64,000 nt of DNA from Myxococcales bacterium (GTDB lineage: Bacteria; Myxococcota_A; Polyangia; Polyangiales; DASUME01). Below, piece by piece: positions 1-44,239 of the stretch (positions within the stretch are counted from its first letter, which is position 1; each line of letters opens with the position of its first letter). Made by a program: the position numbers and the translations under genes. The notes under the pieces were generated by a model, which saw only the letters and a program-made list of their open reading frames with translations, was not told the origin of the DNA and did no database searches. The DNA is taken from NCBI GenBank assembly GCA_047601445.1, contig JASGJH010000001.1, forward strand, positions 160,001 through 224,000, read 5' to 3'.

Positions 1-3000
1 ATGCCCCCAGTACGCACGATCACCTGGTTTCACACCGGAGCGTGGCTGGAGCGGGAGCGACTCGAGCTCGCGTTGGCGCAGGAGTACTACCGACAGGACC
101 CGGAGGCGCCGCTGCTGGAGGACACGCGGCTTCCTCCTGGACTTTCGGCGGCCGACGAGCGTGAGGCAGCCCGCGCGTTGCGGGGGCAGGTCCTGCGGCA
201 GGAGATCTATGGTGAGGACGAGACCTCGGCGAGCGCGCACCCCTACTCGGTTTCGGAGCGGGATTACGAGGTTAGGTTGATTCAGGGGCGATTAGGGAAC
301 GCCCATGGTGTGTTCTTCACGCACCCCCGCACCACGATCAGTCTCGCGTACGAGCGCAACCCGGGCGATCGACGGATGAGCCAGGAGTTCGTGCTCGACG
401 TGGATGAGTTCGGAAACGTCCTCCGGTCCGCCTCCATTGCCTATCCGAGGCGGAAGCCTGAGGAGGCCGAGCAAGCGAAGCTCTGGGCGACGGTCAGCGA
501 AGCAGTCGTGACCAACGTGCTCGTGGGCGGCCATCGGCTCGGGGTGCCACTCGAAGGGCGCTCCTATGAGCTGACCGGGCTAGCGCCGCCTCCTCGCGGG
601 GTGCTCGCATTCGATGCCGTTGCTGTCGCTGCCCGCACTGAGAGTGTGCTCGCCTATGAAGAGGAGCCGCAGAACGGTATACAAAAGCGCCTCTTGAGCC
701 ACGGGTTTCAGCGATACTACGACTCGGAGCGTTTGAACGCGGGGCCGCTTCCCTTCGGGCAGGCGGACGCACGGGCCATCCTCTACGAGACCTACCAGCT
801 GGCTCTCACGCCCGGCCTTGTCGAGCGGGCCTTCAACGGCGATGTGCTGCGTGTGACGGGCGAAACCCTCACCGCCGCGGGGTATTGCGAGCTCGAGGGA
901 CGCGTCGGGTGGTGGGTTCCTTCCGCGAGAGCCGTACCCGACGCGACGCGCTTCTTTCAGCCCACAGAGTTCTTCGACGCGTTCGGGAACCGGTCTCGCA
1001 CCAGGTACGACCGCTACGCTGTCTTGGTGGAACGCGTAGAAGACGCTCTCGCCAACACTATGGTTGCCCGCAACGACTACCGGATGCTCGGTCCGGCAAT
1101 GGTCACCGATCCGAACGGCAATCGTACGGCCGTCAACTTCGATGTTCTCGGCATGGTCGTGGCGACGGCGGTCATGGGTAAGGAGGGCTCGGACGATGGG
1201 GACACCCTGGCCGATCCCACCACCATGCTCGACTACGATCTCTTCCGGTGGCTCGACCACGGTACGCCGAATTTCGTGCGGACGCGCGTCCGAGAGGTGC
1301 ACAGAAGCCCGAGCACCCGGTGGCTCGAGAGCTATGCCTATTCGGACGGCTCGGGGCGAGTGGCGATGACGAAGGCCCGGGTTCGCGGGGGCGACGCACC
1401 CGCGCGGGGAGCCGACGGTAAGCTACTCAAGGATCCCGACGGCTCCCTGGTCCTTGTAGGTACCGAATCACGGTGGGTGGGCTCCGGGAAAGCCGTGCTG
1501 AACAACAAGGGGCTGCCAGTAAAGCAGTACGAGCCCTTCTTCTCATCAACCAGGGAGTTTGAGGACGAGGCGGAGCTAGTTCAGTGGGGCGTGACGCCGA
1601 TCATGTTCTACGATGCTGCAGGCCGGCTCATTCGCACCGTGCTGCCGCACGGCGGTGTGGGGCGCGTTGTGTTCACACCCTGGGAGCAGGTTGTTTACGA
1701 CGAGCACGATACGGTATTGGAGGCGGGGAACCGATGGCTCGCTGAGCGAACGGCTGGGGGGGCGCTCGCGTCCGATCCCGATGAGGCGCGAGCCGCGAGG
1801 GCCGCCGTGGCGCACGCTAACACGCCGACCACCACCAAGTTCGACACAATGGGACGGCCATTCTTGGTGCACGCACGGTTGTCGTCGGACCCGAATGTAG
1901 AGCCCATCGCGACCAGAGCGGTGCTGGATGTCGAGGGGCACGCGCTGCAGGTGAACGATGCTCTTGGGCGCGACTGCATGGTTTCCACGTTCGGCATAGG
2001 CGGCCAGGTATTGCGTCAAATCTCGATCGACGCCGGCGATCGTCGCGCACTCGCCACGGTCGATGGGGGTCCGCACGCGACCTGGGACGCCGTGGGGCAT
2101 CTGGTGGAGACCCGCTTCGATGCGCTGAGGCGGCCGACCTACGTCAAGGTTGCTCGAAGTGGCGTCAGTTGGTTGGCGAGCCGCATTTTGTATGGAGAGT
2201 CGCTCGTCAAGAACGACGCCGTGGCGAGCAACACGCTTGGAAAGGCGATTCTCAGCTTTGACGGCGCGGGGCTTGTGCGAACACAACGCTACGACTTCAA
2301 GGGAAACCTGCTCGAGTCATCTCGCACGCTTGCCCGGGAGTACCGACGGGAGCCTGACTGGAGTCCGCTTGAGGCGGTCGTAGACACCGAGGCGGCGCTC
2401 GTGGCCGCGTCCGACCTGCTTGAAGGAGAGAGCTTTCAGAGAACCTTTAGGTTCGACGCGCTGAATCGGGTGATCCGCGGGACCTATCCCGATCATGGTG
2501 ATTTCACGAAGCAATCAAGTGCGGCCCCGCAGTACGACGAGGCTGGTATGCTTCGTGCGCTGACCGTCTCTGTGCGAGGGGCCGCGGACGCTCCCTTTGT
2601 CGGAGACGTCACTTACAACGCGCAGGGGCAGCGAGAACGTATCGCCTACGGCAACGGCACGGAGACATCGTACCGCTACGACCCGCTCACGCTTCGCCTA
2701 TGCAGCGTCGCGACGACGCGCCCAACATCTCTCAAAAGCGAGAGCGAGCGCCTCCAGGCGATCGACTATGTGTATGACTGCGTCGGCAACATCACGACGA
2801 TGCGTGACTCGGCCGCGCAGGAGCTCTTTTTTTCCGGGACGCAAGCGCTAGAGGCCAACCAGTACGTATACGACGCGCTCTACAGGCTCACCGAGGCGAC
2901 CGGGCGTGAGCAAAAGGGCTTGGTGGGGGACGCTCAACGAGATGATAGGGACCTGCCGATCCAAAACCTGCCGCACGTGAACGACGGCCAGGCACTGCGG

Positions 3001-4803
3001 CGTTACCGAGAGTCCTACGAATACGACGTCGTCGGCAACTTCGACCTGTGGACGCACGAGGCATTGGGCGAGGGCCCTGGATTGCAGGCAACCTGGAAGA
3101 GGGCCTACGCCTACGGCGTGCACAAAGACAAGCGCTCGAATCGGCTCGAGAGTACGAGCCTGCCCGAGGACCAGCTCGCGAGTTACCACCACGACAACAA
3201 CGGCAACATGGTCAGCATGCCGCACCTCTTGGCCATTGCGTACACGCATGCCGACCAGATGCGGTTCGCCGATCTGGGGGGTGGCGGGATGGCCTTCTAC
3301 ACATACGATGGAGGTGGTGAGCGCGCGCGCAAAGTGATCGAGCGGCCCGGTGGCACCGTGCTCGAGCGCATCTACCTGGGGGACTACGAGGTGTACCGGG
3401 AGCGCAGGGGCGAGCGGAACGAGTTGGAGCGCCAAACGTTGCACGTGATGGATGGTGCGCGTCGTGTCGCTATGGTCGAGACAAAGACCGAGGATGCGGA
3501 AGACCAGAACGGCCTAGGTGTTAGCCGAGCGCGCTACCAGCTCGGAAACCACTTGGATTCGGCGATGCTCGAGTGCGACGAGAAAGGCGCCTTAATCTCC
3601 TACGAGGAATATCATCCGTACGGAACCTCGTCATTCCGAAGCGCTCGCGGTGGACTCGAGGTGAGCGCCAAGCGATATCGGTACACCGGCAAGGAGAGGG
3701 ACGAGGAGACGGGGTTTGGGTACCACTCGGCGAGGTACTGCGCATACTGGTTGGGAAGGTGGACCAATTGTGACCCCGTTGGACTGAGAGGAGCAGGGCC
3801 AAACCTCTACGAGTATGGTCTAGCGAATCCGCACCGAATGACAGACCCGCAAGGGACAAGCCCGACCGACGTCGACTACAATGCCATCGGACCAGCGGCC
3901 TCTCCGAACAGCGCGACCCTGAGCGTTTGGGAGGCGAAGGTGCCCGGAATTCTACCGAAGTTGGGCGAGGCGCCAACACCGATCCTAATGGGCAACGGAT
4001 GGAGCGCGAGCGCCAACGTTGGTCTCAATTCCAAGGGTCCGGCTACGACCCGGGCCGGGACCTCAGGTTCTTCGAACGGCGCTAGGAACGGCTGGGCACT
4101 GTTGCTGCCAGCTGTTGCGAAGGCGATGGATGGGGTCCTGGAGAACGTGAAGACCCAGGCACTGGAAGTATTAAAGGACGGGGTCGAAGTGGCCGCCGAA
4201 AGCGAACTGACTTCGACTGCCGTCGTGGAGGGCATAGGCGTCGCAGCGAGCGTCCCGGAGTCTGCTGAGGCTGTTGCCCTAATGCCGCTGCTCGCACCAG
4301 TCGCAGCAACTTTCACGATGGTTGTAGGTCCAGGTTTGGCGTTTGAACCACACAAACCGACCATCACATGGACGATAGGAGGAGTCGACGCCGACACCTA
4401 TTCCTATTTGGACCCTTCCGGAAAGCCATGTATCTACCCAGTGGTCTTGCATCCACCGACAACAGACACGAGTGCAGAAGCCGTCTATGAAACCCAGCTC
4501 TACATCTGGTTCGGACGGGAGGAAGTGAGGCTTGGTCTCCTATCGCCGACGGGGCGAGTTTCGACAAAAGGTAAACTCGGGACAGAAAAGAAGAATGCGA
4601 CCGAACGCGAAAAGCGCCGAGCTGCTCGGGCTGGAACACCGTACAAGGGACAGGCCTCCCATATGATCGATACGACATGGACCGGCTCAGCTGAGCCGCC
4701 TGCATGGTACGATATGATTCCGGCTGTGAACCTAAGCCTAGGCTCACAATCGGAAAAGTATCCGCTCAAATACAAGCCGGATTGCTTTATCTTCGCTCCC
4801 TAA
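1..4803 (+). CDS. Tc toxin B-C fusion / Rhs repeat protein with variable C-terminal toxin domain (probably 5'-partial)
   Basis: TcdB-middle-like start (PPVRTITWFHTGAW), YD repeats, Rhs core (YEEYHPYG, RYRYTGKERDEETG), PxxxxDPxG motif (PHRMTDPQG), then a divergent ~315-aa tail. Confidence 0.9.
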   Translation: MPPVRTITWFHTGAWLERERLELALAQEYYRQDPEAPLLEDTRLPPGLSAADEREAARALRGQVLRQEIYGEDETSASAHPYSVSERDYEVRLIQGRLGNAHGVFFTHPRTTISLAYERNPGDRRMSQEFVLDVDEFGNVLRSASIAYPRRKPEEAEQAKLWATVSEAVVTNVLVGGHRLGVPLEGRSYELTGLAPPPRGVLAFDAVAVAARTESVLAYEEEPQNGIQKRLLSHGFQRYYDSERLNAGPLPFGQADARAILYETYQLALTPGLVERAFNGDVLRVTGETLTAAGYCELEGRVGWWVPSARAVPDATRFFQPTEFFDAFGNRSRTRYDRYAVLVERVEDALANTMVARNDYRMLGPAMVTDPNGNRTAVNFDVLGMVVATAVMGKEGSDDGDTLADPTTMLDYDLFRWLDHGTPNFVRTRVREVHRSPSTRWLESYAYSDGSGRVAMTKARVRGGDAPARGADGKLLKDPDGSLVLVGTESRWVGSGKAVLNNKGLPVKQYEPFFSSTREFEDEAELVQWGVTPIMFYDAAGRLIRTVLPHGGVGRVVFTPWEQVVYDEHDTVLEAGNRWLAERTAGGALASDPDEARAARAAVAHANTPTTTKFDTMGRPFLVHARLSSDPNVEPIATRAVLDVEGHALQVNDALGRDCMVSTFGIGGQVLRQISIDAGDRRALATVDGGPHATWDAVGHLVETRFDALRRPTYVKVARSGVSWLASRILYGESLVKNDAVASNTLGKAILSFDGAGLVRTQRYDFKGNLLESSRTLAREYRREPDWSPLEAVVDTEAALVAASDLLEGESFQRTFRFDALNRVIRGTYPDHGDFTKQSSAAPQYDEAGMLRALTVSVRGAADAPFVGDVTYNAQGQRERIAYGNGTETSYRYDPLTLRLCSVATTRPTSLKSESERLQAIDYVYDCVGNITTMRDSAAQELFFSGTQALEANQYVYDALYRLTEATGREQKGLVGDAQRDDRDLPIQNLPHVNDGQALRRYRESYEYDVVGNFDLWTHEALGEGPGLQATWKRAYAYGVHKDKRSNRLESTSLPEDQLASYHHDNNGNMVSMPHLLAIAYTHADQMRFADLGGGGMAFYTYDGGGERARKVIERPGGTVLERIYLGDYEVYRERRGERNELERQTLHVMDGARRVAMVETKTEDAEDQNGLGVSRARYQLGNHLDSAMLECDEKGALISYEEYHPYGTSSFRSARGGLEVSAKRYRYTGKERDEETGFGYHSARYCAYWLGRWTNCDPVGLRGAGPNLYEYGLANPHRMTDPQGTSPTDVDYNAIGPAASPNSATLSVWEAKVPGILPKLGEAPTPILMGNGWSASANVGLNSKGPATTRAGTSGSSNGARNGWALLLPAVAKAMDGVLENVKTQALEVLKDGVEVAAESELTSTAVVEGIGVAASVPESAEAVALMPLLAPVAATFTMVVGPGLAFEPHKPTITWTIGGVDADTYSYLDPSGKPCIYPVVLHPPTTDTSAEAVYETQLYIWFGREEVRLGLLSPTGRVSTKGKLGTEKKNATEREKRRAARAGTPYKGQASHMIDTTWTGSAEPPAWYDMIPAVNLSLGSQSEKYPLKYKPDCFIFAP

Positions 4804-5312: not shown

Positions 5313-5514
5313 GGCGCTCAGCAGTTGCGCGTGGCTGTTCAGACGGTCGCGGGTGCCGCGGCGAAGCGTTCGGGGGACCGTTAGTGGGATTGCAGCAAGA
5401 GTTGACGCCGGGCAGGGAAGCTACTTGCAGGTGCGTCTTTGCTTTTCAAACATGGCGACGGAGCCGTCGCCGGATCGGTCGCGGGAGCCGGGGCGCGCCG
5501 CTCGTGGGCCCGCA

Positions 5515-5584
5515 AATCCTCCGCAGGCCGCGTACGGGTCGGCTAGGCGAATCCTCCGCAGGCCGCGTACGGGTCGGCTAGGCG
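5515..5584. repeat. Perfect tandem duplication, 2 x 35 bp
   Basis: aatcctccgcaggccgcgtacgggtcggctaggcg at 5515-5549 and 5550-5584. Confidence 0.95.
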
Positions 5585-8732: not shown

Positions 8733-8885
8733 GGGGCGAGGGGTGGGCTTGGGGGCGCCCCAAGTCGCTTTGTCGAACTCGTGTCCTCACCGTTGACTGG
8801 GCCACCAAAGCGCGGCCAACTCCCATCTCACCGCCCCCCACGACGCGACAAAGCGCAGCGCGCCCCCAAGCCCACCCCTCGCCCC
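8733..8885. repeat. 26-bp perfect inverted repeat with inner 10-bp IR (MITE-like or large hairpin)
   Basis: ggggcgaggggtgggcttgggggcgc (8733-8758) vs its reverse complement (8860-8885); inner cgctttgtcg (8766-8775) / cgacaaagcg (8846-8855). Confidence 0.85.
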
Positions 8886-8986: not shown

Positions 8987-9011
8987 AGTGGTGGAGGCGC
9001 CGGGAGTCGAA
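8987..9011. repeat. att site: displaced copy of tmRNA 3' end
   Basis: agtggtggaggcgccgggagtcgaa identical to 23895-23919. Confidence 0.93.
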
Positions 9012-9144
9012 TCCCCTTGGCAGCGATTTCGTAACGTGGCGACATCGCGCGCTTTTTTGCCAAGTGGTTGATTTGAAGGCGCTTTGTCCGCATCGGGTGA
9101 GTGCGCGCCAGTGTTTCCGAGACAACAGCAGTCCCCCGGACTCC

Positions 9145-9359: not shown

Positions 9360-10352
9360 CTAGTCTTTGTCATCGCTGGGGAGGCCGAGAATGTTCGCGT
9401 TCAAGCCCACCTCCTGTGTGGCGAGGAATTGAATACGGCGAACGTAGCTAGTCACGATCTTGACTGCCTGCTCCAAGTCGTCGGCCTGCGCGAGGACTTG
9501 CCCTGTGTTGACGCAGAGGGTTTCGCAAAGGACCAGTAGGTCAGACTTGATCGCGTCGTCGGACACCTGCACGTGTCCGTTGGACCACTCAACGAGCAGG
9601 TTGAAGATCGGGCGAAGCTTCGAGCCCTGCTGTAGGTATTGGTGCACCGAGGTTCGAATCTGGCTCGCCACTCTCGGGTCAACTTCAAAGCGGAGATAGC
9701 CCGGGGATGCAACGCCAGCTGCGATCAGTCGCCCTCTCGTAGCAGCAGATCCCTTCATCTTCTCAAACACGTGATGGAAGACCCAGCCTCCCTTCAGGTT
9801 GTAGTTTAGCCGCAGGTCTCGCACGGCACTCAAGTCGGCCTCGCTGCCGAACAGCGAGAGGAACGCGTGAGCTTGCAGGTACTTCCGGGGATACAACGAG
9901 AGCTGTTCTTGGTAGTCCCAGCTCTCGCCCACGTAGACATCCTGGATTGGCCCACCCGTGAAGACATCGCTGGCGGCGACAAAGTAGGACTTGGCGCTTG
10001 GCAGGTATGAGGGCGGAACGTCGGCCACGAGCCCATAGTAGGTGGCGAGCGCGTCCGCGTTCCCGTCCATGTCCACCAAGTATACGAATTGGTCTAGGCA
10101 TTTCTCGATAACCGTCCGCAGCGTCACCTTGCCGAGGAGATACGGCAAGAGCTGGGCTGGTGGTGTGCGCACGACCATCCAGCGGTTGGCTTCAGCCGAG
10201 GAATCACACCACTTGTAGAGATAGGTTTCGCCTTTCGACGATCGAAACTCCGATAGAAGCGGACCGTCAAACTCGTCTAGATCACGCACGTGGGTCAGGT
10301 CCACCGGGAGGTGGGTGATCCGCGTGAACCGTTGAGGGGGGAGGGCGTTCAT
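9360..10352 (-). CDS. DUF6575-like domain protein
   Basis: 330 aa; N-terminal FDGPLLSEF...YLYKWCD....NRWMVVR...L..YL.GK.TLR pattern. Confidence 0.65.
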   Translation of the reverse strand: MNALPPQRFTRITHLPVDLTHVRDLDEFDGPLLSEFRSSKGETYLYKWCDSSAEANRWMVVRTPPAQLLPYLLGKVTLRTVIEKCLDQFVYLVDMDGNADALATYYGLVADVPPSYLPSAKSYFVAASDVFTGGPIQDVYVGESWDYQEQLSLYPRKYLQAHAFLSLFGSEADLSAVRDLRLNYNLKGGWVFHHVFEKMKGSAATRGRLIAAGVASPGYLRFEVDPRVASQIRTSVHQYLQQGSKLRPIFNLLVEWSNGHVQVSDDAIKSDLLVLCETLCVNTGQVLAQADDLEQAVKIVTSYVRRIQFLATQEVGLNANILGLPSDDKD

Positions 10353-10808
10353 AGCGGGTTACCGACGATCGTACTGACCGTCTCTAGGGCCGCACCGTGG
10401 CATTCGTGAAGGTCAAAGTGGCCGTTCTTGTCGGCCAGGCATTGGAGGCCGTGCGACGCGACTAAATTGACCTCGGCCAGATGGGTCCACTTCGGGGATT
10501 CCGTCCGGGTGCCTGAGGATGTTCGGGTAGTCCGCCACGAGCTGGCCGTAGCGCTTCCTGGCAGCCATTTCGCTCACGAACATGGATAGGCCATAAGCCG
10601 AACAGCTTGGCGTCCTGGGACGGTTGGCCCGTAGGGGGGGCTCCTTGATGACTGGGAGGAAGGACGCCGGGGTCAACGGGTTCCGGACGAAACGGTACGC
10701 CTTCCGGCTCATGGGCTTGGCGTCGGCGGGTGGGCAGCTCGGGAACTGGGCGATTTCCGAAGCGTACTTTAGAGGTCCAGGCACACCTTCCGCTCTATTC
10801 TGGGTCAT
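10349..10808 (-). CDS. Small hypothetical protein (CPPxDA..YRxV..C..GLSxF..GHFxLHE), split by a 1-nt insertion at G-run 10494-10497
   Basis: Deleting one base joins ...YPNILRHPDGI to PKWTHLAEVNLVASHGLQCLADKNGHFDLHE...NPL*, whose stop overlaps the ATG of the DUF6575-like gene (ATGA). Confidence 0.6.
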
Positions 10809-10824
10809 TTCCTGGCGACCCAGA

Positions 10825-11280
10825 TTAGGTGTGGTTGTCTTTCTTGTCTAGAACGCAGCTCTTGACCCGCCAGTCCGACACCGAAACCGCCCGCCGTCGA
10901 TCGTCGAGGCTCACGTGCGTGTACATCGTGGTCATCTTGATCCGGGCGTGACCGGCCAGTTTCTGGATCTGGGGGAGGGGAACACCCTTCGCTACGGGTT
11001 GTCGGACGTAGCTGTGCCGCAGCTTGTGCCACCCACATCGCTCGACCCCAGCAGTTTCGCAGGGCCGCCACAGAGGCCATTTGCATCCGTTCTTCGTGAG
11101 CAGGAGGCCCCCATCATCGCCGAAAACTTAGGCATCGGGGGCGGCCTTTGGCGATAGAGGCCCTCAAGGGGAGCTTGGTACCACGCGAATGCGATTGCTC
11201 TTCGTGTGGCCCTGATGACTTTCGCCCTTGGCGTCCCACACCGCTCTTGCTCACCGTGACCTGGTGAGTGCGCACCGGGC
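10825..11280 (-). pseudogene. Relic of a second tyrosine integrase (catalytic C-terminus)
   Basis: Manual translation TKSNRIRVVP...LTKNGCKWPLWRPCETAGVERCGWHKLRHSY...KGVPLPQIQKLAGHARIKMTTMYTHV, with in-frame stops upstream. Confidence 0.85.
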
Positions 11281-11523
11281 TGTTTGTCCGCGATGACGAA
11301 GGGAGCGATCGCCAGGTACGTGCCGCTAACCTTCCAACGCTGCGCCTGTTCGATGAAGTAAACACAAATAAGTTCAATTGGTTACGGCCGGCGAGGCGGG
11401 GGGCGGATCGGGGTGAAAACTGCCGAGGGCTGAGCTTTTTCCGCCTCCCTTGCGTCTGGCTTCGTAGAGTCCCGTCAGCCCAATCGGGGGGGCCGCCTGC
11501 CGACTGCAGGGAGGACACAGGTC

Positions 11524-13698
11524 ATGTCGAACGTGTTGCATTCAGTGGGCCAGAAGCTCAACGAGCCGCAGCTCACCAACGATCAGGCTTCGGCTGCCAG
11601 TCACCTGGTCTCTCTCGTGGAACCGGGCGCGTACGTAGGTGACGTGTTCTCGCTGAGCTACGAGCACGCGTTGGTACAGATACACGATCACTACAGGCAA
11701 CGAGTCGGAGGCATCCCCGCTCTTTCCTTTCTGATCGCGACGCGCATCGGCCCGCAGCAGAAGACGGATGTTCGCGAGGAGGACTCTTCGATCGTGCTGC
11801 TGCGAGCACTCGATCACTGCGACCTCCCGAACGCGGCCGAAGCTCTCCGTGTTCGCGTCGAAAATGCGCAACGCGTAAGCGGCGAGACGGAGAAGCACTG
11901 GGACGATCGCAGTGTCATGGATCCCATGACTCATAACCTGCTGAGCTACGCCGGCGTACGTTGCCGAGTCGTGGGGACCTTCTATGTCGAGGCGACCGGC
12001 GCCGATGGTGAATCGAAGTACGCGCTCAAATTTGGGTCGGACCTGTCGAACTACTATCCGAATAGAGGCCTGAAAGTCTACAAGCCTCGCGGGGCTGTGC
12101 TGGCGAAGCTCGTCAACTATCGTGACCCGCACGCCTTGAACGCACACGCCAACAACGTTTTCGTCGGCAAGGTTCGCTATGCATCTACGAATCGGTCATT
12201 TCAGCAGATCGGCAACGTAGGATTCGCCATCACGCCGACGGACCTGCTGGGACAGAAAACTGCACTCTTTGGAATGACGCGTTCCGGAAAGTCGAACACG
12301 ACAAAGATCGTGCTCAAGTCGATTTTCGAGCTTCGGTGGCAGGACTCGCCGAAGCGAATCGGCCAGATCGTGTTTGACCCGAATGGCGAGTACGCAAACG
12401 AGAACACGCAGGACGCGCACTCGGGGCAGAACCCGACCGCGCTCAAGAATGTGTGGGCGTGCGCGCCAGACGCTCAGCGCGACGTTACGAGAGCGGACGT
12501 GGTCACGTATGGGATTACGCGACATCCAAACGATCCCGGGCGGAAGCTGATGCTGCTCAACTTCTTAGTAGAGCGCAACTTGATAATCGGCAAAGAGATC
12601 ATCGACGCAGCTCTTGCTGATGACACCACCAAGTACGTGACCAACTTCAGAAGTGTCTCGATGGAGAAGCCGGAGGGCGATCCGTTTTCTGGCGACATGC
12701 GGCGATGGCAACGCCGGGTGCTCTTCTATCGAGCTCTGCTTATTCAGGCGGGTTTCGCGGCGCCGGCCAACCTCAAGCCGGACACTGCAAAGCTCTTCAA
12801 CAAGGATCTCTTGCAAGCGCTGGCTTCCCGTCCCGAGGATGACGAGGCCGAGGGTGCCGAACGAAAAGGCCGACGAGCGAAGGCTGCGGCGACCGATCCG
12901 GACTATGCGGTGTGCGCCACCATCTTGCAGAAGGAGAAGCCCGGATGGGGAGAGATCGCGCAAGCCGCGAGGATTCTCTATAGAGCCATCGTCTCTCGCG
13001 ATTCTCCCTTTGCAGCGTTCGACCAAAAGTATGTGCAGGAGCACGAAGGGTCTTGGGCTGACGATCCACTTCGCGCAATCTTGGGCATGTTCGATCAGCC
13101 GAACGGCTCGCGCATGGTGGGCCGCATTCGAGAGCAGCACACGTCGGACACAGCCACCGACTATGCCGACGACATTTACTCAGACTTGAGGGCAGGAAGG
13201 CTCGTCATCGTTGACCAATCCAGCGGAAATCCGGAGCTAAACAAGTCCTCCGCTGACCGCGTGATGAGGCGGATCTTCGAGCGAAACCAGAGCGACTTTC
13301 GCCGAGGCGAGAGTCCTCCTGACATGCTCGTGTATGTCGAGGAAGCTCACAACATTCTCCCGTCAGCAAAGGAGGACGATTTTCAAGATATCTGGGTTCG
13401 CACTGCCAAAGAGGGAGCGAAGTACCGCATTGGATTGGTGTACGCCACCCAAGAGGTCAGCACCATTCAGCGCAACATTCTGCGTAACACCGCCAATTGG
13501 TTCATCGGCCACTTGAACAATACAGACGAGACGAGAGAGCTCAACAAGTTCTACGACTTTGCCGACTTCGAGGGCAGCATTCTACGCGCACAGGACAAGG
13601 GCTTTGTTCGCGTGAAGACGTTGTCCAATCCGTACGTTGTCCCTGTGCAGGTTGAGCTGTTCTCTATCGACCCTGCTGGTAGTCACAATGCCGTATGA
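11524..13698 (+). CDS. HerA/FtsK-superfamily ATPase (DUF87-like)
   Basis: HAS-barrel-like N-terminus, Walker [17 protein letters not shown], Walker B VYVEEAH, KEGAKY, ATQ. Confidence 0.88.
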
Positions 13699-15043
13699 GG
13701 GCGAATTTGCGGGGTATCGGGCACTTCAACGCATTGCCGAGACGGAGCGTGTCAAGAATCTCGTGCGCAATGCCCGTGTCCAGGCCGCCGCCGTTGGGCC
13801 TCGGGTAGTTCCGGTCCTTGCGCCGAGCCCACCGTCTGCATTGCCTGACTTCGTCTTTGCGATCGACGGCAGTCTCGCAGAGATTGATGTCCGCAATGGA
13901 TTCCCAGGCGCAAAAGTCGGCTACTGCACCGTAGCCAGTGTGCTGCTTGACCTCCATCGGATGGAGGAGTTGGACGAGAACCGCCCAGCAGACCCTCGCG
14001 AATTTCGGAAGACCGAAGAGGCATCGAGCATTGATGCCGCACTGCCAGGCAGCAATGTAGTGACTCGGACCAATACGTCGGCCGCGGAGTCGTTCCGGCA
14101 AGCGCTTTACGAGAGCCTTCACGACGGCGTGGTAGACGAGCAGGAAGGTTCGCCAATCCTCGAGACCTATGAGGCGCTGCTCGCACTCAAGCCAGACAAC
14201 AGGAACGGTCAGCGGTGTCCTTATGACGATGAGTACGCCTGCGACGGCCGCCTTGAGCGTCTCGAGAAGGGGCTTACCTCTTGCGCCTGTGATCGACGGA
14301 AGGCAATCTACTCGACTGACGCTTTGCGCATCCACGAAGGGTTTCGATCGCTAGGCTCGAACCTCGAGGCCTACGGGGAAGTAATGCAGGTCTGGGAGCG
14401 CGTTCTCTTGGTGCACCTGCTTCGTTGTTTCGAACGGCGCAACTGGCTCGACCGAGTTGGGCGCTTGGCATTCATGCTGGATGGCCCGTTGGCTGTCTTT
14501 GGTCATCCCGCATGGTTGAGTGCTGCCATTACGAAGGAACTTCAGCGGATCAACGTCAAGGTTCGGCAGCTCACCGGCAATGATCTGCTGATTCTTGGCG
14601 TCGAGAAGACTGGAGAGTTCGTCAGTCATTTCGATCACATCGATCAGACGGAGCAACCCGGTGAGGAGTACTTTCCGCGTCGCGGGTATCAGCTTCTTAC
14701 GGACAAGTACATCAAAGAGCGAGTCAAGTTCTCGGATAGCGACAAGCGCTATGGCGCCGACACGTACTTCGGCCGGAAGCTCTTCTACAAGACGTCGAAG
14801 GGCGGGCGAATCGTCGCGACGATTCCTTTTCTGACCGCAGAGCAGGACACAATCCAGTCCGACGACATCTCCCTTTATCCGCAGTTCTCCGCGGTCTGCG
14901 CACTACTCGACAAGTTGGTGTCGTCACGCTTCCAGAACGCGTTGACACCGCTGGTTGCCGCGAACGCGCAGGCGGCGATCCCGCTGGAGTTGGGAGCCAA
15001 AGTATTGCAGCAGCTTGCAAGGGCGCTAATGAAGGAACGATGA
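13688..15043 (+). CDS. NurA-like nuclease (RNase H/PIWI-like fold) with Cys-rich insert
   Basis: FAIDGS and LDGPL acidic motifs, GVEKTG, CPYxxxxxC...CxC insert; overlaps HerA stop by 11 nt. Confidence 0.8.
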
Positions 15044-16160
15044 GTCGCGGCACGGAAGCAAGAGACTACGAGACCGCCGAGCGTCGGTGGGAGGGAGTTG
15101 GGCCGTACTACGCGATGTTCCCAACTGCATTCTCCGATGCTGTGGTACGCGACTACACGAGCCGAGGCGATGTCGTCCTTGATCCCTTTGCGGGGCGCGG
15201 AACTTCGCTCTTCAGCGCAGCTGCCCAGGGGCGGCGGGCTGTCGGTATCGAACTGAACCCCGTGGGCTGGGTCTATGCATCCGCCAAGTTGGCGCCCTCT
15301 GAGCGCCAGCGCGTGGAGGACAGAATTTGTGAGATCGAATCGCTCGCTCCCGGATTCGCTCAAGACGCGGTCGCTCTGCCGACCTTTTTCGGCACTGCTT
15401 CACGCTGCGCGTGAGGCAGTATCTCTGTGCTGCTCGCGGCACCTTGTCATGGCGCTCGAACGAGGTGGACCGGACCTTAATGGCGATCTTGCTCGTACAC
15501 ATGCATGGCAAGAGGGATGCGTCTCTCTCAAACCAGATGCGTCAGGCAAAATCCATGGCTCCCGACTACGCAGTTCGGTGGTGGAAGGAGCGGCACATGA
15601 GACCGCCGGATGTCGATCCGGTTAGCTTTCTCCTCAAGCGGGTTGCATGGAGGTATGCACGGGGGGTGCCTGCGCTCGCGCCCTCGCAGGTGATTCTCGG
15701 CGACAGCACACAGGCGCTGGACGAGATCCGTGAACGGATTCGAGCGAGAGGTTTGCGACGCGCAACGTTGCTTTTTACCTCCCCGCCCTACTGCGGCATT
15801 ACCAACTACCACTACGATCAATGGTTGAGGCTGTGGATGTTGGGAGGAGCGCCCAGTGCTCGCCGTCCCCCGGGCGCTGGAGAGTACCGAGACAAGTTCG
15901 AGAACGTAGATAAGTACAGGACCCTGCTTAGGACCGTGTTCTGCTCAGCCGCAGAGAGCGTGAAAAAGTCAGGCACCGTCTATCTCCGAACAGGTCGACA
16001 AGAAGAGACGTTGTCGGCGACCCTCGACGCGTTGCGCGAAGCTTTTCCCAAGAAGAGGGTACGAATGACGCGTCGCCCGTTCCTGCGACCCACACAGACC
16101 AAGCTATTCGGAGACAAGTCTCAGAAACAGGGCGAGGTGGACCTCGTGATCGGGCTTTGA
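15040..16160 (+). CDS. Amino (N4-C/N6-A) DNA methyltransferase, split by a 1-nt deletion at T-run 15385-15389
   Basis: PYYAMFP and motif I DPFAGRGT in first part; motif IV TSPPY in second part; one added base reads LPTFFRHCFTLRVRQYL; ATGA overlap with NurA. Confidence 0.85.
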
Positions 16161-16258: not shown

Positions 16259-16780
16259 TCAAGGCACTTCGCGCATGACCGTGAGGCGCCACTTGCAGTC
16301 GTCGTGGACCGGGCCTCCGTGCGTCTCGGACATCATGAACGGTCCTTCCGTAACCGCGCGACCCGCGACAATTCCAGCACCGGTCTCCCACGCCCCGCGC
16401 AGACTGAGATCCAACGTCTGGACTCGTTCCGTGCCTGTGAGGACGGGATAGGTCGCTCCCGCCGGCGAGATCTCAATGGGCGTCACGGTCACGTTGTTCT
16501 CGAAGTTGGAGGCCGGGACCCTCACGATGGACCAGGTCATCCCCGTAGCGTCGAGTTTCGGGCAAGCGGGCCCTGAGGCAACGCGCAGCACGTGGTAGCG
16601 CTCGCCAGCGGGCGCTTCCGCGTCGGGCTCCGTGGTGACCTCAGCGTCCAAGTTCTGGCCGGAGTCGACAAGACCCGCATCATCTTCCGGCGCGTAGCCG
16701 GCATCGGGACCGAGGTTGTAGATGTTGGTGGTGTCGCCGCAGGCGGCGGCGAGCAAGAGGAGTACGGCCCAGCGGTTCAT
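16259..16780 (-). CDS. Hypothetical lipoprotein
   Basis: MNRWAVLLLLAAAC lipobox-like signal, 173 aa. Confidence 0.65.
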   Translation of the reverse strand: MNRWAVLLLLAAACGDTTNIYNLGPDAGYAPEDDAGLVDSGQNLDAEVTTEPDAEAPAGERYHVLRVASGPACPKLDATGMTWSIVRVPASNFENNVTVTPIEISPAGATYPVLTGTERVQTLDLSLRGAWETGAGIVAGRAVTEGPFMMSETHGGPVHDDCKWRLTVMREVP

Positions 16781-16911
16781 GTGTGATCTCCAGAGGCAGC
16801 CCACGGTACTTCGCAACATTTGGCCTCAACGCGGCATGAACAGTCTAGTCCAAGTAGACTTTCTTCCATGGTCCATGTCCTGGGAGGCCAAGATGGGTTT
16901 CCCTTCGGCCA

Positions 16912-17298
16912 ATGGCAGGCGACATTGAGCGTGTCTATGGGGAGATCGGGGAGCGTGTGGCAAAGCTCCGCGACGAGCGAGGGTTCACTCAGGAGCAGCT
17001 CGCCGAGAGGGCCGGAATTAGTGCCAATCATCTCGCCAAGGTTGAGCGAGCCTTTAAGCGATCCACCGTCGCGACGCTTGCCCAGGTGGCGAAGGCCCTC
17101 GGAGTGCCGCTCGCGGCCCTGGTCTCCGAGGAGGGGAAGGAGGGGGCCTCGGTCCCTGGGCTTGTCGAGGTGCTCACGACGCTTCCCAAGGACGACCAGC
17201 GCGCCATCCTGCGGCTTGCCGAGCATTTCGTGAAGGTTCGGTCGTCGAGCGCCTCGCCCGAGGGCAGCAAACGTCACCGAGCGCATTCTCGACGTTAG
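16912..17298 (+). CDS. XRE/Cro-CI family HTH repressor
   Basis: IGERVAKLRDERGFTQEQLAERAGISANHLAKVERA. Confidence 0.9.
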   Translation: MAGDIERVYGEIGERVAKLRDERGFTQEQLAERAGISANHLAKVERAFKRSTVATLAQVAKALGVPLAALVSEEGKEGASVPGLVEVLTTLPKDDQRAILRLAEHFVKVRSSSASPEGSKRHRAHSRR

Positions 17299-19755: not shown

Positions 19756-19971
19756 ATGCACATTCGGGATGAGGCAATCATGGCCATTCTCGAACATCGC
19801 CGGTTCATAGCGGCAACACGGATAGCACACGTGCTGGGGGTGTCGCCCCGCACGGCTCGCCTTTGGGCCCGAGCCGGCAAGCTTCCTACAGTGCGTATCG
19901 GGGGACGGCGCCTTGTCGACCTCGAACGTCTCGAGGCTCTGATCGCCGCCCAGCGTCGCGATGCCCCCTAA
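19756..19971 (+). CDS. Excisionase-like HTH_17 protein
   Basis: IAHVLGVSPRTARLWARAGKLPTVRIGGRRLV. Confidence 0.8.
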   Translation: MHIRDEAIMAILEHRRFIAATRIAHVLGVSPRTARLWARAGKLPTVRIGGRRLVDLERLEALIAAQRRDAP

Positions 19972-19989
19972 AAGTTTGAGAGACCGTGC

Positions 19990-21018
19990 GTGTCACCGCG
20001 CGGCCTCTCTGGTCCTCCTGCGTCCGAACACCCAATTCGAAAGCACCTCAGACCGATGGACACTACCACGATTTGCGCGCCGCCAGGCGTTCAGATGCTC
20101 AGCGCTGAGCAACTTCAAGATATCAGTGCTGTGCCGCCCAAGATGCTGCTCGACGCTCACCTTCGCGTCGCGGAAGGCGAGGCGGTACTCCTGTTCGGCC
20201 CGGCGAGCGTGCACAAGACTTGGCTCCTACTTCTGGCTGCGCTCACGGTCTCTGCGAACACGGGCAAGTCCATCTACTTCGCGGGCGAGGGATCGTTGGA
20301 CGCCATGGCCCTCCGTGTCCTTGCTCTGCTTGCCGGAATGAACTTGACGTTGTCTGACGTTCGCGGCCGCTTTCATCTTGCGGTCGGTGGGTTCGACCTG
20401 ATGGATGAAGCCAATCATGCCTGGCTTGCCGAGCAGTCCGATGGGATCGGGCCTGACTTCGTAGTGCTGGACCCGATGTCGTCGTTTTTCTTCGGGGATG
20501 AAAACGCTGCCAAGGACACGAAGGCCTTCGTGGCTGGGCTGGACCAGTGGCGCCGAAGCGGCCCGGTGGCTATCGCGCTCGGCCATCACGCGCGTAAGCC
20601 AAGCGAGGGGCGTCCCGAGGACGTCCGCGGAAGCTCAGTGCTCCGCGCCTGGGCCGATCAGGTCGTGTCCGTTTCGCGAACGACCCCTCTCGAGTCCGAG
20701 AGTCGCCTGCTAGTGCAGAAGCAGCGTGACGGTGCGCCGCGAGCTCCTTGCCTGGTCCGGTTCGCTTTCAGTGATGGACGCGTTGACGTCGCCGTGAAAG
20801 ACGACAACGAGTACGGAGCAGAAGGTGCCGTTCTTTCGGCTCTGCGCGCGGCCCAAAAGCCGCTGAGCAAGACCGAAATTCGAGAGCAGATCGGACGCAG
20901 CAGTGAGGACGTCGCGGCTGCTTTGGCCGGGCTTTTGAAGCGCAAGGTGATCCGTGGTGCCGATGCTCGGCCGTATGAACGCGGCCGTCGCGGCGTCGTC
21001 CGCTACGAGGCGGTCTGA
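19990..21018 (+). CDS. AAA_25/RepA-like (RecA-fold) helicase with C-terminal winged helix
   Basis: Variant Walker A GPASVHKT, YFAGEG, VVLDP, DEN, HHARK, RGSS. Confidence 0.8.
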   Translation: MSPRGLSGPPASEHPIRKHLRPMDTTTICAPPGVQMLSAEQLQDISAVPPKMLLDAHLRVAEGEAVLLFGPASVHKTWLLLLAALTVSANTGKSIYFAGEGSLDAMALRVLALLAGMNLTLSDVRGRFHLAVGGFDLMDEANHAWLAEQSDGIGPDFVVLDPMSSFFFGDENAAKDTKAFVAGLDQWRRSGPVAIALGHHARKPSEGRPEDVRGSSVLRAWADQVVSVSRTTPLESESRLLVQKQRDGAPRAPCLVRFAFSDGRVDVAVKDDNEYGAEGAVLSALRAAQKPLSKTEIREQIGRSSEDVAAALAGLLKRKVIRGADARPYERGRRGVVRYEAV

Positions 21019-21050
21019 GGTTTGCGCGCGCAGAGCGCGGGAAATGGAGA

Positions 21051-21503
21051 GTGTCTATGAAGTTTAAGGGAAATGGTCGAGATCGGTTCACGGGTGTCGA
21101 GCCTGCACCCAAGCGGATGATCGAGCTGAGCCGCGACGATCTGATGAAGTCAGAGATGCCGGAGTTCGACCGCTATCTGTTCGAGGTGACCAAGGCAGAG
21201 GTCACCAAGAGCCAACAGGGGAACGATACCCTTCACGTCATGTTCTCGATCGTAGGTGGACCCTACGGTGGGTACCAGCTGCTTCAGGCCTATCCGATTG
21301 CGGTCTACCGCGACAAGCTCAAAGCCGTGCTTTGGGCCCTGGGGATTCTCGACGTTGGTGAGTGGGGAGGGAGCCTCGATCCTGATCACCTCGTGGGCCT
21401 CAAAGCCTCGGCGGAGCTCTTTATGGAGAGCACCGACAAGGGCGACTACCTCCGTCTCGATGAATGGTTGAAGGCTCCTGAAGTCGAGAGCGCGACGCCA
21501 TGA
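21051..21503 (+). CDS. DUF669-like putative ssDNA-binding protein
   Basis: YLFEVTKAEVTKSQQGNDTLHVMFSIVGGPYGG pattern; located between helicase and primase. Confidence 0.6.
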   Translation: MSMKFKGNGRDRFTGVEPAPKRMIELSRDDLMKSEMPEFDRYLFEVTKAEVTKSQQGNDTLHVMFSIVGGPYGGYQLLQAYPIAVYRDKLKAVLWALGILDVGEWGGSLDPDHLVGLKASAELFMESTDKGDYLRLDEWLKAPEVESATP

Positions 21504-22543
21504 ACATGGTCGAGCACGCACTCGCGTACTTGGAAGCTGGGGTCTCGCTCTTCCCGGTCGATCAGGCCAGAAAGCCGCTGGTCTGTTGGACACGCTGGCA
21601 GCGCGAGCACCCCTGTAAAGCCCAAGTCGCACGCTGGTTCCGTCGATGGCCGTGGGCAGGGATCGCCATCGTCTGCGGCGAAATCAGTGGCTTGTTCGTG
21701 CTCGATATCGAGGTCTACGCGTTGTGGATTCTTGACCAGGTTACGTTGCCCAAGACGCCCACCGTCGAGACGCGCTCCGGTGGGCGGCACCTCTACTACA
21801 AGCATGACCGCGCGTTGCGCTCAACGGTCTGGCACCACGAAGGGAAGCGCATCGGCGAGTTCCGTTCGGGCGGAAACTATGTGATCGCGCCGCCGTCGCG
21901 CGTAGTCGGAGGAGCCTATCGCTGGCTCGTGCATCCGCTTGATGCTGAACTGGTACCTGCACCGGAGTGGGTGTTCGAGAGCCTGATGGCGGTGTCGGCA
22001 GTGTGTCGCTCTTTTCCTCGAACAGCAGACGCGGGGTTGCCTGCGGCGGCACACGCGAGCAGGTCAGAAGCAGACCAAAGCCTTGCGCTTCGAATGGTGC
22101 TGACTGGCAGCCCCGCATTCGAGATCGAAGCCGTTCTGTATGCGAGGCCGGCGTGCAGGGACCGAGGCCGGCACGGTGAGGCCTACGTCCAACGCACCGT
22201 GAGCAAGGCGATAGCGTTCGCGAACCAGCACTACCACGCAGCACGCGTAGCAAGCGTTCGCGATGGGCGTGGCGCAATCGAAATCAACTTCCTCGTGCTC
22301 GAAGGGGCTCATGCCGGACGCATGCTGAAGCGCCGCCTGGATTCAACGATGACCGAGCGCGCCGCGGACGTGTGGGAGTCGTTGCTCGCCCTAGGTTGCG
22401 AACCGCAGCGTCTTCGTCACCTGGTAGGCCTCGAAGTTCGGATCGGCTTGTTCGACTCGCCCTACGGCGGTGTCGCGGTTCGCGGGCCCGTGTACCCGCT
22501 TGTCGGCGCCCTGCAGCGACCATCGGAAGGAGAGAGCCTGTGA
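21500..22543 (+). CDS. Bifunctional DNA primase/polymerase (Prim-Pol)
   Basis: ALAYLEAGVSLFPV..RKPL, GIAIVCG.ISGLFVLDIE, TPTVETRSGGRHLYY, GGNYVIAPPS; SRSEAD motif. Confidence 0.9.
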   Translation: MNMVEHALAYLEAGVSLFPVDQARKPLVCWTRWQREHPCKAQVARWFRRWPWAGIAIVCGEISGLFVLDIEVYALWILDQVTLPKTPTVETRSGGRHLYYKHDRALRSTVWHHEGKRIGEFRSGGNYVIAPPSRVVGGAYRWLVHPLDAELVPAPEWVFESLMAVSAVCRSFPRTADAGLPAAAHASRSEADQSLALRMVLTGSPAFEIEAVLYARPACRDRGRHGEAYVQRTVSKAIAFANQHYHAARVASVRDGRGAIEINFLVLEGAHAGRMLKRRLDSTMTERAADVWESLLALGCEPQRLRHLVGLEVRIGLFDSPYGGVAVRGPVYPLVGALQRPSEGESL

Positions 22544-22748
22544 GCCAGCAAGCAAAACGAGAGCCCCCCTTTTCATGCGAGCAGAAGAGGTCGCAGAACT
22601 CCTGCGCACGACCCGTCGGGCCATCTATGCGATGACCGGGCGAGGCCTCCTTCCCGGGGTGACCCGTGTCGGCCGTCGCCTTCTCTTCCGGCGGGACATT
22701 CTGCTACCTTGGCTGGAGCAAAAGCGTGCGCTGTCGCCCGAGGAGTAG
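22540..22748 (+). CDS. Excisionase (HTH_17); GTG 22540 start needs one extra base in C/T run, otherwise ATG 22575
   Basis: MRAEEVAELLRTTRRAIYAMTGRGLLPGVTRVGRRLLF directly upstream of integrase. Confidence 0.85.
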
Positions 22749-22753: not shown

Positions 22754-23891
22754 GTGGCGATCGAAGATACGACCCTACAAAAGAGGCGGCTTCGAAGTGG
22801 ACATCGTCGTGCACTTGCCCGATGGGAAGACGCTGCGAGAGCGCCGCAAGGCGCCCGTGACGTCCAAGTCGGGCGCGCAACGATGGGCTGAGGCACGGGA
22901 GCGCATCCTGTTGTCCGAGGCCCTTGCTCCGAGGAAGCGAAAAGACGTCCCGACCCTTGCGGTGTTCTGGCCGCGATTCCTTGAGGGACACTGCAAAGCG
23001 AATCGACACAAGCCCAGCGGGGTCGACAGCAAGGAGTCGGCCTATCGCAACTACCTGGGGCCGCTGCTCGGCGACAAGAGGCTCGATGCGATCTCCAACG
23101 AGGACATCGCTCGCCTTAAGAGCCACATGGCAGAGAAGCAGCCGGCAACCACGAACAACGTGCTCTCTGCGCTCAACATGGCCCTCAAGGTCGCGCTCGA
23201 GTGGAGCGTGATCGACAACGTGCCGTGTAAGATCCGGCTGCTGCGGAAGCAGAAGCCGACCCCACGGTTCTACGACTTCGATCAATACGCATGGCTCATC
23301 GAGGCTGCGGGCAAGATCGATGCACGGATCGAAATCCTTGCCCTACTTGGCGGTGACGCTGGGCTCCGCCGCGGCGAGATCATCGCACTGGATTGGGGGA
23401 ACGTTGACCTTCGCCGCAATCGACTAGTGATCGATCGCGCCGAGTGGAAGGGCAAGGTCACCGAGACCAAGGGCATGGAGATGCGCGTCGTCCCCATGAC
23501 CGACCGCCTGCATGCCGCGCTCAGCGTTCACCGCCACCTGCGTGGTGACCGCGTGCTCTACACGGATAGCGGTGAGACTGTCACCGCGAAGGTCCTTCAG
23601 AAGTGGATCGCCAGGGCGCAGAAGCGGGCAGGGCTCCGCGCGACCGGGGCGCTGCACATCCTGAGGCACACGTTCTGCTCGCACCTGGCAATGCGTGGCG
23701 CCGCGGCGCTGTCGATCCAGAAGCTAGCGGGCCACAAGAACCTGCAAACTACGCTCCGGTACATGCACCTCGCCGAAGGCGAGGCCGACCGAGCGATTCG
23801 TCTCCTCAACGCGCCCGTGAACACGGGCGCTCGTGGAGACATTCTGGAGACGACTCAACCGTCGATCGCGATGATCAACGGTTCTGCATAG
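22754..23891 (+). CDS. Tyrosine recombinase/integrase (GTG 22754 with AGGAG RBS is one base out of frame; open frame from 22797)
   Basis: AGLRRGE, HILRH, LAGH, TTLRYMH catalytic motifs; ends next to ssrA 3' end. Confidence 0.95.
23834..23852 (+). promoter_or_regulatory. Putative integrase arm-type binding site
   Basis: TGGAGAC-ATTC-TGGAGAC direct repeat starting 61 bp before the att core. Confidence 0.6.
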
Positions 23892-23896
23892 ATAAG

Positions 23897-24253
23897 TGGT
23901 GGAGGCGCCGGGAGTCGAACCCGGGTCCGAGAGTGATTCGCGTTGGCCTCTACGTGCGTAGCCCCTGTACTAGCTTCGCGGTGGGCAGCGCCCGTGGGCA
24001 GGCTCGCTTCACCGCTATCGACCCTTTATTTCGCAATCACGCCGAGTCGAACTCGTGACCGCTAGTCAGTTCAATTACGCCTCCAGGTGAGCACCGACTG
24101 GCTCAGCCCTTCGACGGCTCCTTTGGCTTAATCAGGCCGCGAGAGCGTATGCGTTATCGTTCGCAATTGGTTTTCTGAAGGTATTTACGTCGTCTTCAGC
24201 CGACAGACACGCAACCAACACTGCACAGCCCCCGTCGAAACCGTATCGCCCCC
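23897..24253 (-). ncRNA. ssrA: tmRNA, tag peptide ANDNAYALAA
   Basis: 5' GGGGGCGAUACGGUUUCGAC, 3' GGUUCGACUCCCGGCGCCUCCACCA, internal tag ORF GCG AAC GAT AAC GCA TAC GCT CTC GCG GCC TGA; 357 nt. Confidence 0.97.
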
Positions 24254-29608: not shown

Positions 29609-29767
29609 CTTCCCGCCGGCGGGGAAGCTACGCGGCGTTACCCGCTGGATTTCATGGGTATTTCCCCTGAACACCGGCGTACAAAGTGCTGGCCACCCCG
29701 CCGGAAAATGCTACGGCAAACCGCTATTCAGCCGGAGGGCCGCCCGCCCGACGGGAGGCGAACGTGC

Positions 29768-32275: not shown

Positions 32276-32276
32276 C

Positions 32277-33251
32277 GTGACGCTGCGCGCGCTGTTCGAG
32301 AGCGCCCGCGCGCGCCGCCTGGCCCTGGGGTTACCCAGCGCCGAGACCAACGCTTACCGCTTGTTTCACGGCGCAGCGGAGGGGCTCGAGGGCCTCACGG
32401 TGGATGTCTACGGGGAGTTCTTGGTGGCGAGCCTGTACACCGAGCAGCGTGGCGCTCGTGAGGAGGAGTGGCTCGATGCGCTCCACGAGCTCGGCTTCCG
32501 TGGGGTGTACCTGAAGCACCGTCCCAAGCAGGCGAACGAGCTGCGAGATGACGAGCGACGTGTGCGCGCTCCCGAGCAGGCCGTGCGTGGGGAAGATGCG
32601 CCGGTGAGCTTCGAGATCCGTGAGTCGTCGCTGCCTTTTCAGGTGCGATTGGGGGACGGACTCAGCACGGGCATCTTCCTCGACCAGCGCGACAACCGCG
32701 CACACCTCGGGCAGATCGCGCGCGGGAAGCGTGTCCTGAACTTGTTCGCGTACACCTGTGGGTTCGGCCTGGCCGCTGCGCTCGGGGGAGCCGCAGAGAC
32801 CACCAACATCGACGTCGCGGTGCCCGTGCTGGAGCGCGGCAAGCTCAACTATCAGGCCGCCGGTCTGGACCTCGAGGGGCACCGTTTTCTCGCGCGCGAC
32901 GTGCTCGACAGCTTGCCCAGGCTGGCGCGCCGTGGGGAGCGCTTCGAAATCGTGGCACTCGATCCGCCGAGCTACGCCTCCGTGAAGGGCAAGGGCCGTT
33001 TCAATGTGGAGCAGGACTACACGGAGCTCGCGCGCCTGGCCTTGTCCGTACTTAGTCCGGGTGGAACGCTGCTCGCTTGTACCAATCACGCACGGCTCAC
33101 CGAAAAAGACCTGGAAGTTTGCCTGCGGAGCGCCGCACGCGCGCTTGGACGAAGCCTGAACGCCGTGAGATTTGTGGCCCCGCCTGCGGATTTTCCAGCG
33201 CCTCCTGGCCGCCCCGGGCATCTGAAAAGTGCCTTTGTCTCCTGTGCCTGA
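32277..33251 (+). CDS. RlmI/RlmK-like SAM-dependent rRNA methyltransferase
   Basis: AYRLFHG, STGIFLDQRDNR, VLNLFAYTCGF, LDPPSY. Confidence 0.88.
   Translation: MTLRALFESARARRLALGLPSAETNAYRLFHGAAEGLEGLTVDVYGEFLVASLYTEQRGAREEEWLDALHELGFRGVYLKHRPKQANELRDDERRVRAPEQAVRGEDAPVSFEIRESSLPFQVRLGDGLSTGIFLDQRDNRAHLGQIARGKRVLNLFAYTCGFGLAAALGGAAETTNIDVAVPVLERGKLNYQAAGLDLEGHRFLARDVLDSLPRLARRGERFEIVALDPPSYASVKGKGRFNVEQDYTELARLALSVLSPGGTLLACTNHARLTEKDLEVCLRSAARALGRSLNAVRFVAPPADFPAPPGRPGHLKSAFVSCA

Positions 33252-37063: not shown

Positions 37064-44239
<7,176 letters not shown>

Follow-up and report, generated by a model that had tools for sequence, protein, structure and literature searches.

Systems in which a HerA-type ring ATPase works with a NurA-type nuclease are known from several settings. 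HerA-NurA is classically an end-resection machine (PMC13748450). The two proteins assemble at a 6:2 ratio into a pump that feeds double-stranded DNA end-first to the nuclease, where both strands are cut; the T. kodakarensis complex degrades both strands whichever end it starts at, and NurA alone spares circular double-stranded DNA (PMC12977600). TdpABC is a phosphorothioate restriction-modification (R-M) system, in which tdpC alone is needed for modification (PMC12914056, PMC13223576). In ICETh1 of Thermus thermophilus, a tRNA-integrated element, tth111II, nurA, tdtA and a methylase gene (TTC1880) form one operon, of which tdtA and nurA are needed for DNA donation (PMC5365140) and the methylase plays only a minor role in it (PMC7767461). 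Here we describe a herA-nurA-methylase cassette at positions 11524-16160 of a 64,000-nucleotide (nt) stretch of DNA from a Myxococcales bacterium (contig JASGJH010000001.1, positions 160,001 to 224,000; hereafter the window). From sequence comparison and by analogy we consider it likely that the cassette is a self-contained, horizontally mobile, R-M-like defence system, a methylation counterpart of TdpABC that would degrade unmarked DNA from its ends.

The three genes overlap on the plus strand. The herA-like gene (11524-13698; 724 amino acids, aa; PF01935, E 6e-9), encoding a putative TdpA-like ring ATPase, shares 11 nt (13688-13698) with the nurA-like gene (13688-15043, ATG start at 13688; 451 aa; PF09376, E 1e-10), which encodes a putative TdpB-like nuclease of the RNase H fold; the latter overlaps the amino-methyltransferase gene by an ATGA (15040-15043). 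The methylase gene is split into a 5' part (15040-15414, the correct frame ending near 15389) with motif I and a match to the N6_N4 methylase family (PF01555, E 1e-11), and a 3' part (15411-16160) with TSPPY; in the relatives these are single open reading frames (ORFs) of 363-389 aa. A first-pass annotation of this DNA had reported both overlaps, an atypical KEGAKY motif in HerA, a Cys-rich insert in NurA and a methylase with motif I before TSPPY. All were located: KEGAKY at HerA residues 629-634, four cysteines at NurA residues 177, 185, 199 and 201, and a motif I reading DPFAGRG ahead of TSPPY. The GC content of the operon is 58.5%, compared to 66.3% for the genome, and a scan of positions 10750-11600 found no promoter. 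Convergent with the methylase, on the minus strand at 16259-16819, is an ORF whose product begins like a lipoprotein and matches no family.

Conservation of the triad was followed in the best 80 of 290 relatives from a genome scan (the close loci); 68 of them, with at least 2.7 kb after herA, were used for the counts, the other 12 ending too soon. nurA was matched in 68/68 and the methylase in 66/68, and the two loci lacking the methylase (L017 and L050) have a wrecked nurA, of which just 31 and 146 residues are retained; the triad proposed from the window is thus a conserved one. Neither a fourth conserved gene nor a conserved restriction endonuclease was found beside it among the close loci, the latter in agreement with the first reading of the locus as a system with no classical restriction endonuclease. 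Pairwise identities over 63 loci are correlated between HerA and the methylase (rho 0.81), NurA and the methylase (0.86) and HerA and NurA (0.88), each with 0/500 shuffles, and shared ancestry explains part of this. The three genes are inherited as a unit. The 80 close loci span 19 named phyla; the cassette was found in 0/9 genomes of the same genus (72-99% complete) and in 1/400 other genomes of the phylum, and its GC content is below that of its flanks in 52 of 56 loci. The cassette is mobile cargo and not a core repair system.

More distant clades display a different relation to the modifier. A HerA profile search returned 459 representatives at E <=1e-30, and an alignment of 54 distant ones was used to fetch 80 metagenome and 11 viral loci; a further viral locus, four from plasmids and L109 brought the set to 97 (several are near-duplicates). 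Viral contigs account for one close locus and 11 broader ones, one contig being common to both sets. Where at least 1.3 kb is present on both sides, a methylase gene is adjacent in 50 of 57 distant loci (48 called by script, L085 and L146 by hand). These partners are of three kinds: D12/Dam-like with DPPY, beta-class with SPPF and alpha-class with SPPY; Pfam confirmed 15 examples, and the remainder were typed by cluster and motif. D12-type and alpha-type methylases gave no significant profile match to one another. The methylase gene stands ahead of herA in 63 of 68 distant-clade cases, and on a quick tree of 86 rows, which carried long-branch warnings, the methylase kinds track the HerA clades (9 changes vs 35.1 upon shuffling). 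The motor-nuclease pair retains a methylase without being tied to one kind, as would be expected if the mark matters. Two cyanobacterial plasmid loci (L083 and L084) hold a herA-nurA pair with an XRE gene upstream and no methylase, that of L084 being followed by an AbiTii gene, and in a Deferribacter plasmid copy (L086:5698-12171) herA is interrupted by an IS200/IS605 element.

The closest solved relative of the HerA is TdpA (E 7.7e-17 with the single sequence; 4.8e-21 with a profile, against 9.6e-10 for the next), by local matches only, and the TdpA profile score is far above those of the Sir2- and DUF4297-type HerA. Its Walker A motif reads G250-M-T-R253-S-G-K256, Walker B contains E606/E607, and the sensor is Q643. 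K256, E606/E607 and Q643 are invariant in 64/64 close HerA proteins, and so is the Walker A Arg253. The usual arginine-finger position, just before strand 4 as defined in PMC10853773, is occupied by Ala632. Both motifs could be parsed in 90 of 150 representatives: in 89 the Arg is present in Walker A but missing from the finger, and P0265 alone shows the opposite arrangement. TdpA resembles P0265, with Arg at the finger (KEGRKY) and not in Walker A. That the two arginines exclude each other in 90/90 suggests a relocated catalytic arginine, or compensation, though the pattern reflects few independent events. In P0265, Walker A contains Gly and the finger Arg, and a transglutaminase-like domain is fused to the C-terminus of the protein. 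Eight distant HerA proteins (P0204, P0209, P0222, P0235, P0238, P0257, P0259 and P0263) have long inserts just past the Walker A lysine; LAGLIDADG domains are present in four of the eight, and the inserts look like inteins.

In NurA, D60, E217, D265 and E306 are invariant in 62/62 close relatives, and the motif III His is replaced by Asn in 17/62, including the window copy. The insert has four or five Cys in 54/62 close relatives and two CxxC-like pairs in 71/77 distant ones, and its four cysteines (177-201) probably form a Zn site. A sequence search of the PDB with NurA gave no meaningful match, and its placement comes only from a fold search with a predicted model (predicted local distance difference test, pLDDT, 88). 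TdpB was the best hit (Z 19.6, root-mean-square deviation 4.5, 321 aligned residues), followed by Sulfolobus NurA (Z 14.0) and Deinococcus NurA (Z 12.7). From the motor's sequence and the nuclease's model, the pair appears to be nearer TdpA/TdpB than the repair HerA-NurA.

The TSPPY motif is invariant in 59/59 methylases. A model of the unbroken methylase from L003 (pLDDT 89) has EcoDam and DpnM as top fold matches, and with motif I before motif IV and an inserted domain the enzyme appears to be of the alpha class, with a Dam/DpnM-like topology; the SPPY presumably points to N4-cytosine. A homologous alpha-class methylase occurs without herA at L206. The window's reading frame is broken at a T5 run (15385-15389), by either an assembly error or a recent mutation, while relatives read through as one ORF in 65/66 loci. 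The L003 protein shares 65% and 68% identity with the two halves; because these values match those of HerA (67%) and NurA (72%), a mutation here must be very recent, the alternative being an assembly error. A systematic error is argued against by homopolymer counts, which look normal, with no obvious genome-wide loss of 6-mers; residual breaks nevertheless occur in this assembly, since 4 candidate frameshift-like breaks were counted in 131 orthologous segments (~120 kb). A programmed frameshift was ruled out, as 65/66 relatives are intact and the frame of L047 is broken at another position. The window copy would be functional only if the frameshift is an assembly error, for which the chances are about even. 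At L003 a 4-kb insert (L003:11590-15610) separates nurA from the methylase and contains a MADS3-like ATPase (below cut-off) with a 208-aa partner.

If the cassette acts as proposed, a HerA hexamer and a NurA dimer would load on a free double-stranded end, and both strands would be degraded as ATP drives the DNA through. The methylase, with its SPPY, alpha order and probable N4-cytosine specificity, would mark short sites in host and element DNA, and the methyl mark would stall either motor or nuclease. Unmarked linear phage or plasmid DNA would consequently be consumed, and a broken chromosome would be degraded just to the next mark. Arg253 of Walker A, or Lys633, may stand in for the missing arginine finger. 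In TdpABC, the sulfur mark reportedly inhibits both translocation and cutting by TdpAB.

Several observations weigh against this proposal. The stalling of the motor by a methyl group would be an analogy to that TdpABC result. The similarity of HerA to TdpA is weak and local, and NurA shares just 15% identity with TdpB. Ala, Ser or Gly is found at the arginine-finger position in 73/74 close HerA proteins (one could not be parsed), and with the canonical finger absent, translocation is not assured. No clade-specific site avoidance was detected; palindromes showed generic depletion only, in all three methylase groups. Seven of the 57 distant loci (L083, L084, L140, L156, L167, L170 and L174) have no adjacent methylase, and on the HerA tree the methylase-less loci are scattered (6 changes, 88/500 shuffles being as low). 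The window locus and L047 carry a broken methylase next to an intact herA-nurA. Such copies may mean that the pair is not lethal in unmarked cells, or that it borrows host marks. Finally, the ICETh1 operon, in which all three of these gene types occur, serves DNA donation, with a minor methylase effect.

This last point leads to another explanation, which we regard as unlikely, namely that the cassette is a module for DNA donation or mobilisation, in which motor and nuclease process DNA and push it out for transfer and the methylase is accessory. Besides the requirement for tdtA and nurA in ICETh1 (PMC5365140), the location of the window cassette on an integrative element speaks for it. The triad has, however, no type IIG enzyme or other endonuclease conserved beside it, no conjugation family was found among 289 neighbouring ORFs, and the gene set of the element is satellite-like. 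The proteins and their order also differ from those of ICETh1 (TdtA 568 aa and NurA 377 aa, vs 724 and 451 here), and a methylase that is strictly retained and repeatedly replaced fits a minor role poorly. A decidedly unlikely scenario is an abortive-infection or sensor system: the finger-less HerA would act as a slow switch, or as one that does not translocate, and would release NurA upon infection, as in Sir2-HerA and DUF4297-HerA, and the methylase would protect the element or regulate expression. The family-wide loss of the arginine finger and weak matches to anti-phage HerA models are in its favor. Against it, the Walker A, Walker B and sensor residues are invariant, and intein-like inserts target this Walker A; the exclusion of one arginine by the other suggests compensation, and TdpA scores far above the Sir2- and DUF4297-type HerA.

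Very unlikely, in our estimate, and not exclusive of the defence proposal, is a selfish addiction module in which the methylase is a labile antidote and HerA-NurA kills cells that lose the element, phage defence being incidental. The cassette is indeed mobile-element cargo, often near toxin-antitoxin genes, and the two close loci without the methylase have a wrecked nurA; yet copies with an absent or broken methylase and an intact herA-nurA exist, and a circular chromosome offers few substrates to a nuclease that loads at ends. We find it most improbable that the pair is an accessory end-resection device for repair with a hitch-hiking orphan methylase. HerA-NurA is classically such a machine (PMC13748450) and homologous alpha-class methylases do occur without herA, as at L206, but the cassette is patchy and mobile, has no Mre11/Rad50 nearby, has recruited three methylase kinds, and has a NurA structurally nearer to TdpB than to repair NurA. 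Weighed against these explanations, R-M-like defence by a mobile motor, nuclease and methylase remains the one we prefer.

The gene neighbourhood was examined in 289 of 322 ORFs within 3 kb of the cassette and in 145 of 190 at distances of 5.5 kb or more, with classification by hand. Defence-type families (R-M, toxin-antitoxin, Schlafen, PD-(D/E)XK, TIR and similar) account for 29/289 near ORFs vs 3/145 far ones (Fisher p 0.0017), an enrichment for which the first-pass annotation had asked us to look; many triads nonetheless lie amid housekeeping genes. The absence of Mre11/Rad50, also claimed there, was seen again: neither is adjacent in the window or among the 289 near ORFs of relatives, and an SbcD model gave only a below-cut-off match, elsewhere in this genome. 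In a Vibrio temperate phage, herA, a nurA-sized ORF and a type II methylase lie between integrase and excisionase. Schlafen group 3 helicase or UvrD-PD-(D/E)XK genes recur beside the cassette (L011, L023, L034, L069, L167 and L170, two of them methylase-less); an anti-phage dCTP deaminase above the NCBIfam cut-off is directly upstream of herA at L010:7935-9524; and in L005, L022 and L043 a dGTPase and a 233-aa gene follow the methylase. Truncated dndC pieces (TIGR03183) abut herA in 2/80 close loci (L014:186-761, E 2e-62; L048, about 9825-10004, E 4e-15); they may mark phosphorothioate systems that the cassette displaced, or be relics of a sulfur-linked ancestor.

In the window, the operon is carried by a 14.9-kb element integrated in a transfer-messenger RNA (tmRNA) gene (23897-24253, minus strand). 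It is bracketed by 27/28-nt attachment (att) repeats, one at the tmRNA 3' end (23895-23922) and a distal copy of that end (8987-9014), in line with the original description of the genes as mobile-element cargo. On the plus strand the element also encodes an XRE-family repressor (16912-17298), a replication block (19756-22748) with helix-turn-helix (HTH)/excisionase-like genes, an AAA_25 helicase (19990-21018) and a Prim-Pol (21500-22543), and a tyrosine integrase (22797-23891). On the minus strand, divergently oriented to herA, is neighbouring cargo consisting of homologs of the toxin PD-T4-10B (9360-10352; PADLOC model, E 4e-33) and the antitoxin PD-T4-10A (10413-10808; E 5e-21). PD-T4-10 is a toxin-antitoxin pair that blocks T-even phages (bioRxiv 10.1101/2022.05.12.491691); as a fourth component of the system it was ruled out, being beside herA in 0/80 related loci. 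Among the 15 element ORFs scanned no capsid or tail family was matched, and two weak terminase-labelled matches fell on HerA and on an HTH protein; the gene set suggests a satellite-like element. Other genomes of the genus show synteny with this one on the host side of the tmRNA, and the ~1.5 kb past the tmRNA 3' end in three of them (L208, L211 and L212) has no match to the element.

A second integrase, at G000:C1:8052449-8053480, is 51% identical to that of the element and suggests a related element elsewhere in the genome. To the left of the element lies a 1600-aa Rhs-repeat protein gene (window positions 1-4803), and a further island may occupy the DNA from there to the att repeat. That interval includes two tandem 35-nt copies, 97% identical, at 5512-5581, and a mismatch-free 26-nt inverted repeat at 8733-8885 whose arms are separated by 101 nt, just outside the distal att repeat. 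The host side at 29654-44239 encodes a HelD-like helicase, a Snf2 helicase and a 2391-aa nonribosomal peptide synthetase.

A broader and rather doubtful possibility is that TdpABC and these cassettes form a single, widespread class of end-loading shredders, in which a chemical mark halts the motor and no recognition sequence triggers it; N4-methylcytosine, N6-methyladenine and phosphorothioate would each be accepted by the motor, and in the present branch the catalytic arginine would have moved from the finger into Walker A. Modification genes would then be interchangeable, and methylase-less copies could borrow host marks, because the motor would accept several marks. If the proposed function is correct, a widespread R-M class without a site-specific endonuclease has been overlooked by the PADLOC 2.0 and NCBIfam models searched, and TdpABC becomes one branch of a modular family rather than a thermophile curiosity. 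Three genes would suffice to ask how a sequence-blind motor-nuclease tells self from non-self, and the transfer module of ICETh1 may deserve a fresh look as a repurposed defence machine.

The first-pass annotation had called the system undescribed. This holds for the methylase-linked variant, as no PADLOC 2.0 or NCBIfam system model fits the cassette and PADLOC 2.0 has no model for NurA; it does not hold for the kind, TdpABC and ICETh1 being precedents that had been missed. Our literature search turned up no account of the triad in a defence role, although An et al. 2025 (on TdpABC), Iyer et al. 2004 or their supplements may mention methylase-linked HerA-NurA operons. The triad is not described in passages of PMC13748450, PMC10853773, PMC12948488, PMC12707154, PMC11472057, PMC7251087 and PMC3417536, two of which are reviews, and PMC10853773 does not mention NurA. 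With the repair HerA-NurA of archaea and Deinococcus the cassette shares the folds and the NurA DG motifs, but it is mobile, patchy, methylase-linked and without a link to Mre11/Rad50. Sir2-HerA (Nezha) and DUF4297-HerA similarly place a HerA core in a defence setting; here the partner is NurA, with no Sir2 or DUF4297, those systems have no methylase, and the matches to anti-phage HerA models are weak and partial (NCBIfam, 28-42 bits vs cut-offs of 800-850). The exchange of one modification for another has parallels in BREX type 4, where, compared to other BREX, a defence machine swaps its methylase for a phosphorothioate enzyme (PMC12914056), and in DndDE found with cytosine methylases (PMC10853773), both with core genes unrelated to the cassette.

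ICETh1 is closer, this integrative element having a single operon for a NurA-like nuclease, a HerA-like ATPase and a PF01555 N4/N6 methylase. Compared by gene type, size and order, it differs in the sizes given above, in its nurA-tdtA-methylase arrangement and in its type IIG enzyme, which is lacking at the window locus; among the ORFs scanned, L067 is the one locus where the triad is followed by an Eco57I-family gene. TdpABC (PDB 8wet, 8wfd and 8y1k) is the best match of both proteins and likewise combines a HerA-type motor, a NurA-fold nuclease and one DNA-modifying enzyme. That enzyme is an amino-methyltransferase here and the sulfur enzyme TdpC there, and no match to a DndC-type sulfur enzyme was found in this genome. 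HerA has 724 aa vs 586 in TdpA, NurA has 451 aa with a four-Cys insert vs 358 modelled residues of TdpB, the arginine is in Walker A here and at the finger in TdpA, and the cassette hosts, judged by record titles, are mostly not thermophiles. Taken together, these comparisons suggest a cassette that resembles TdpABC but differs in its modifier, and resembles ICETh1 but without its restriction enzyme.

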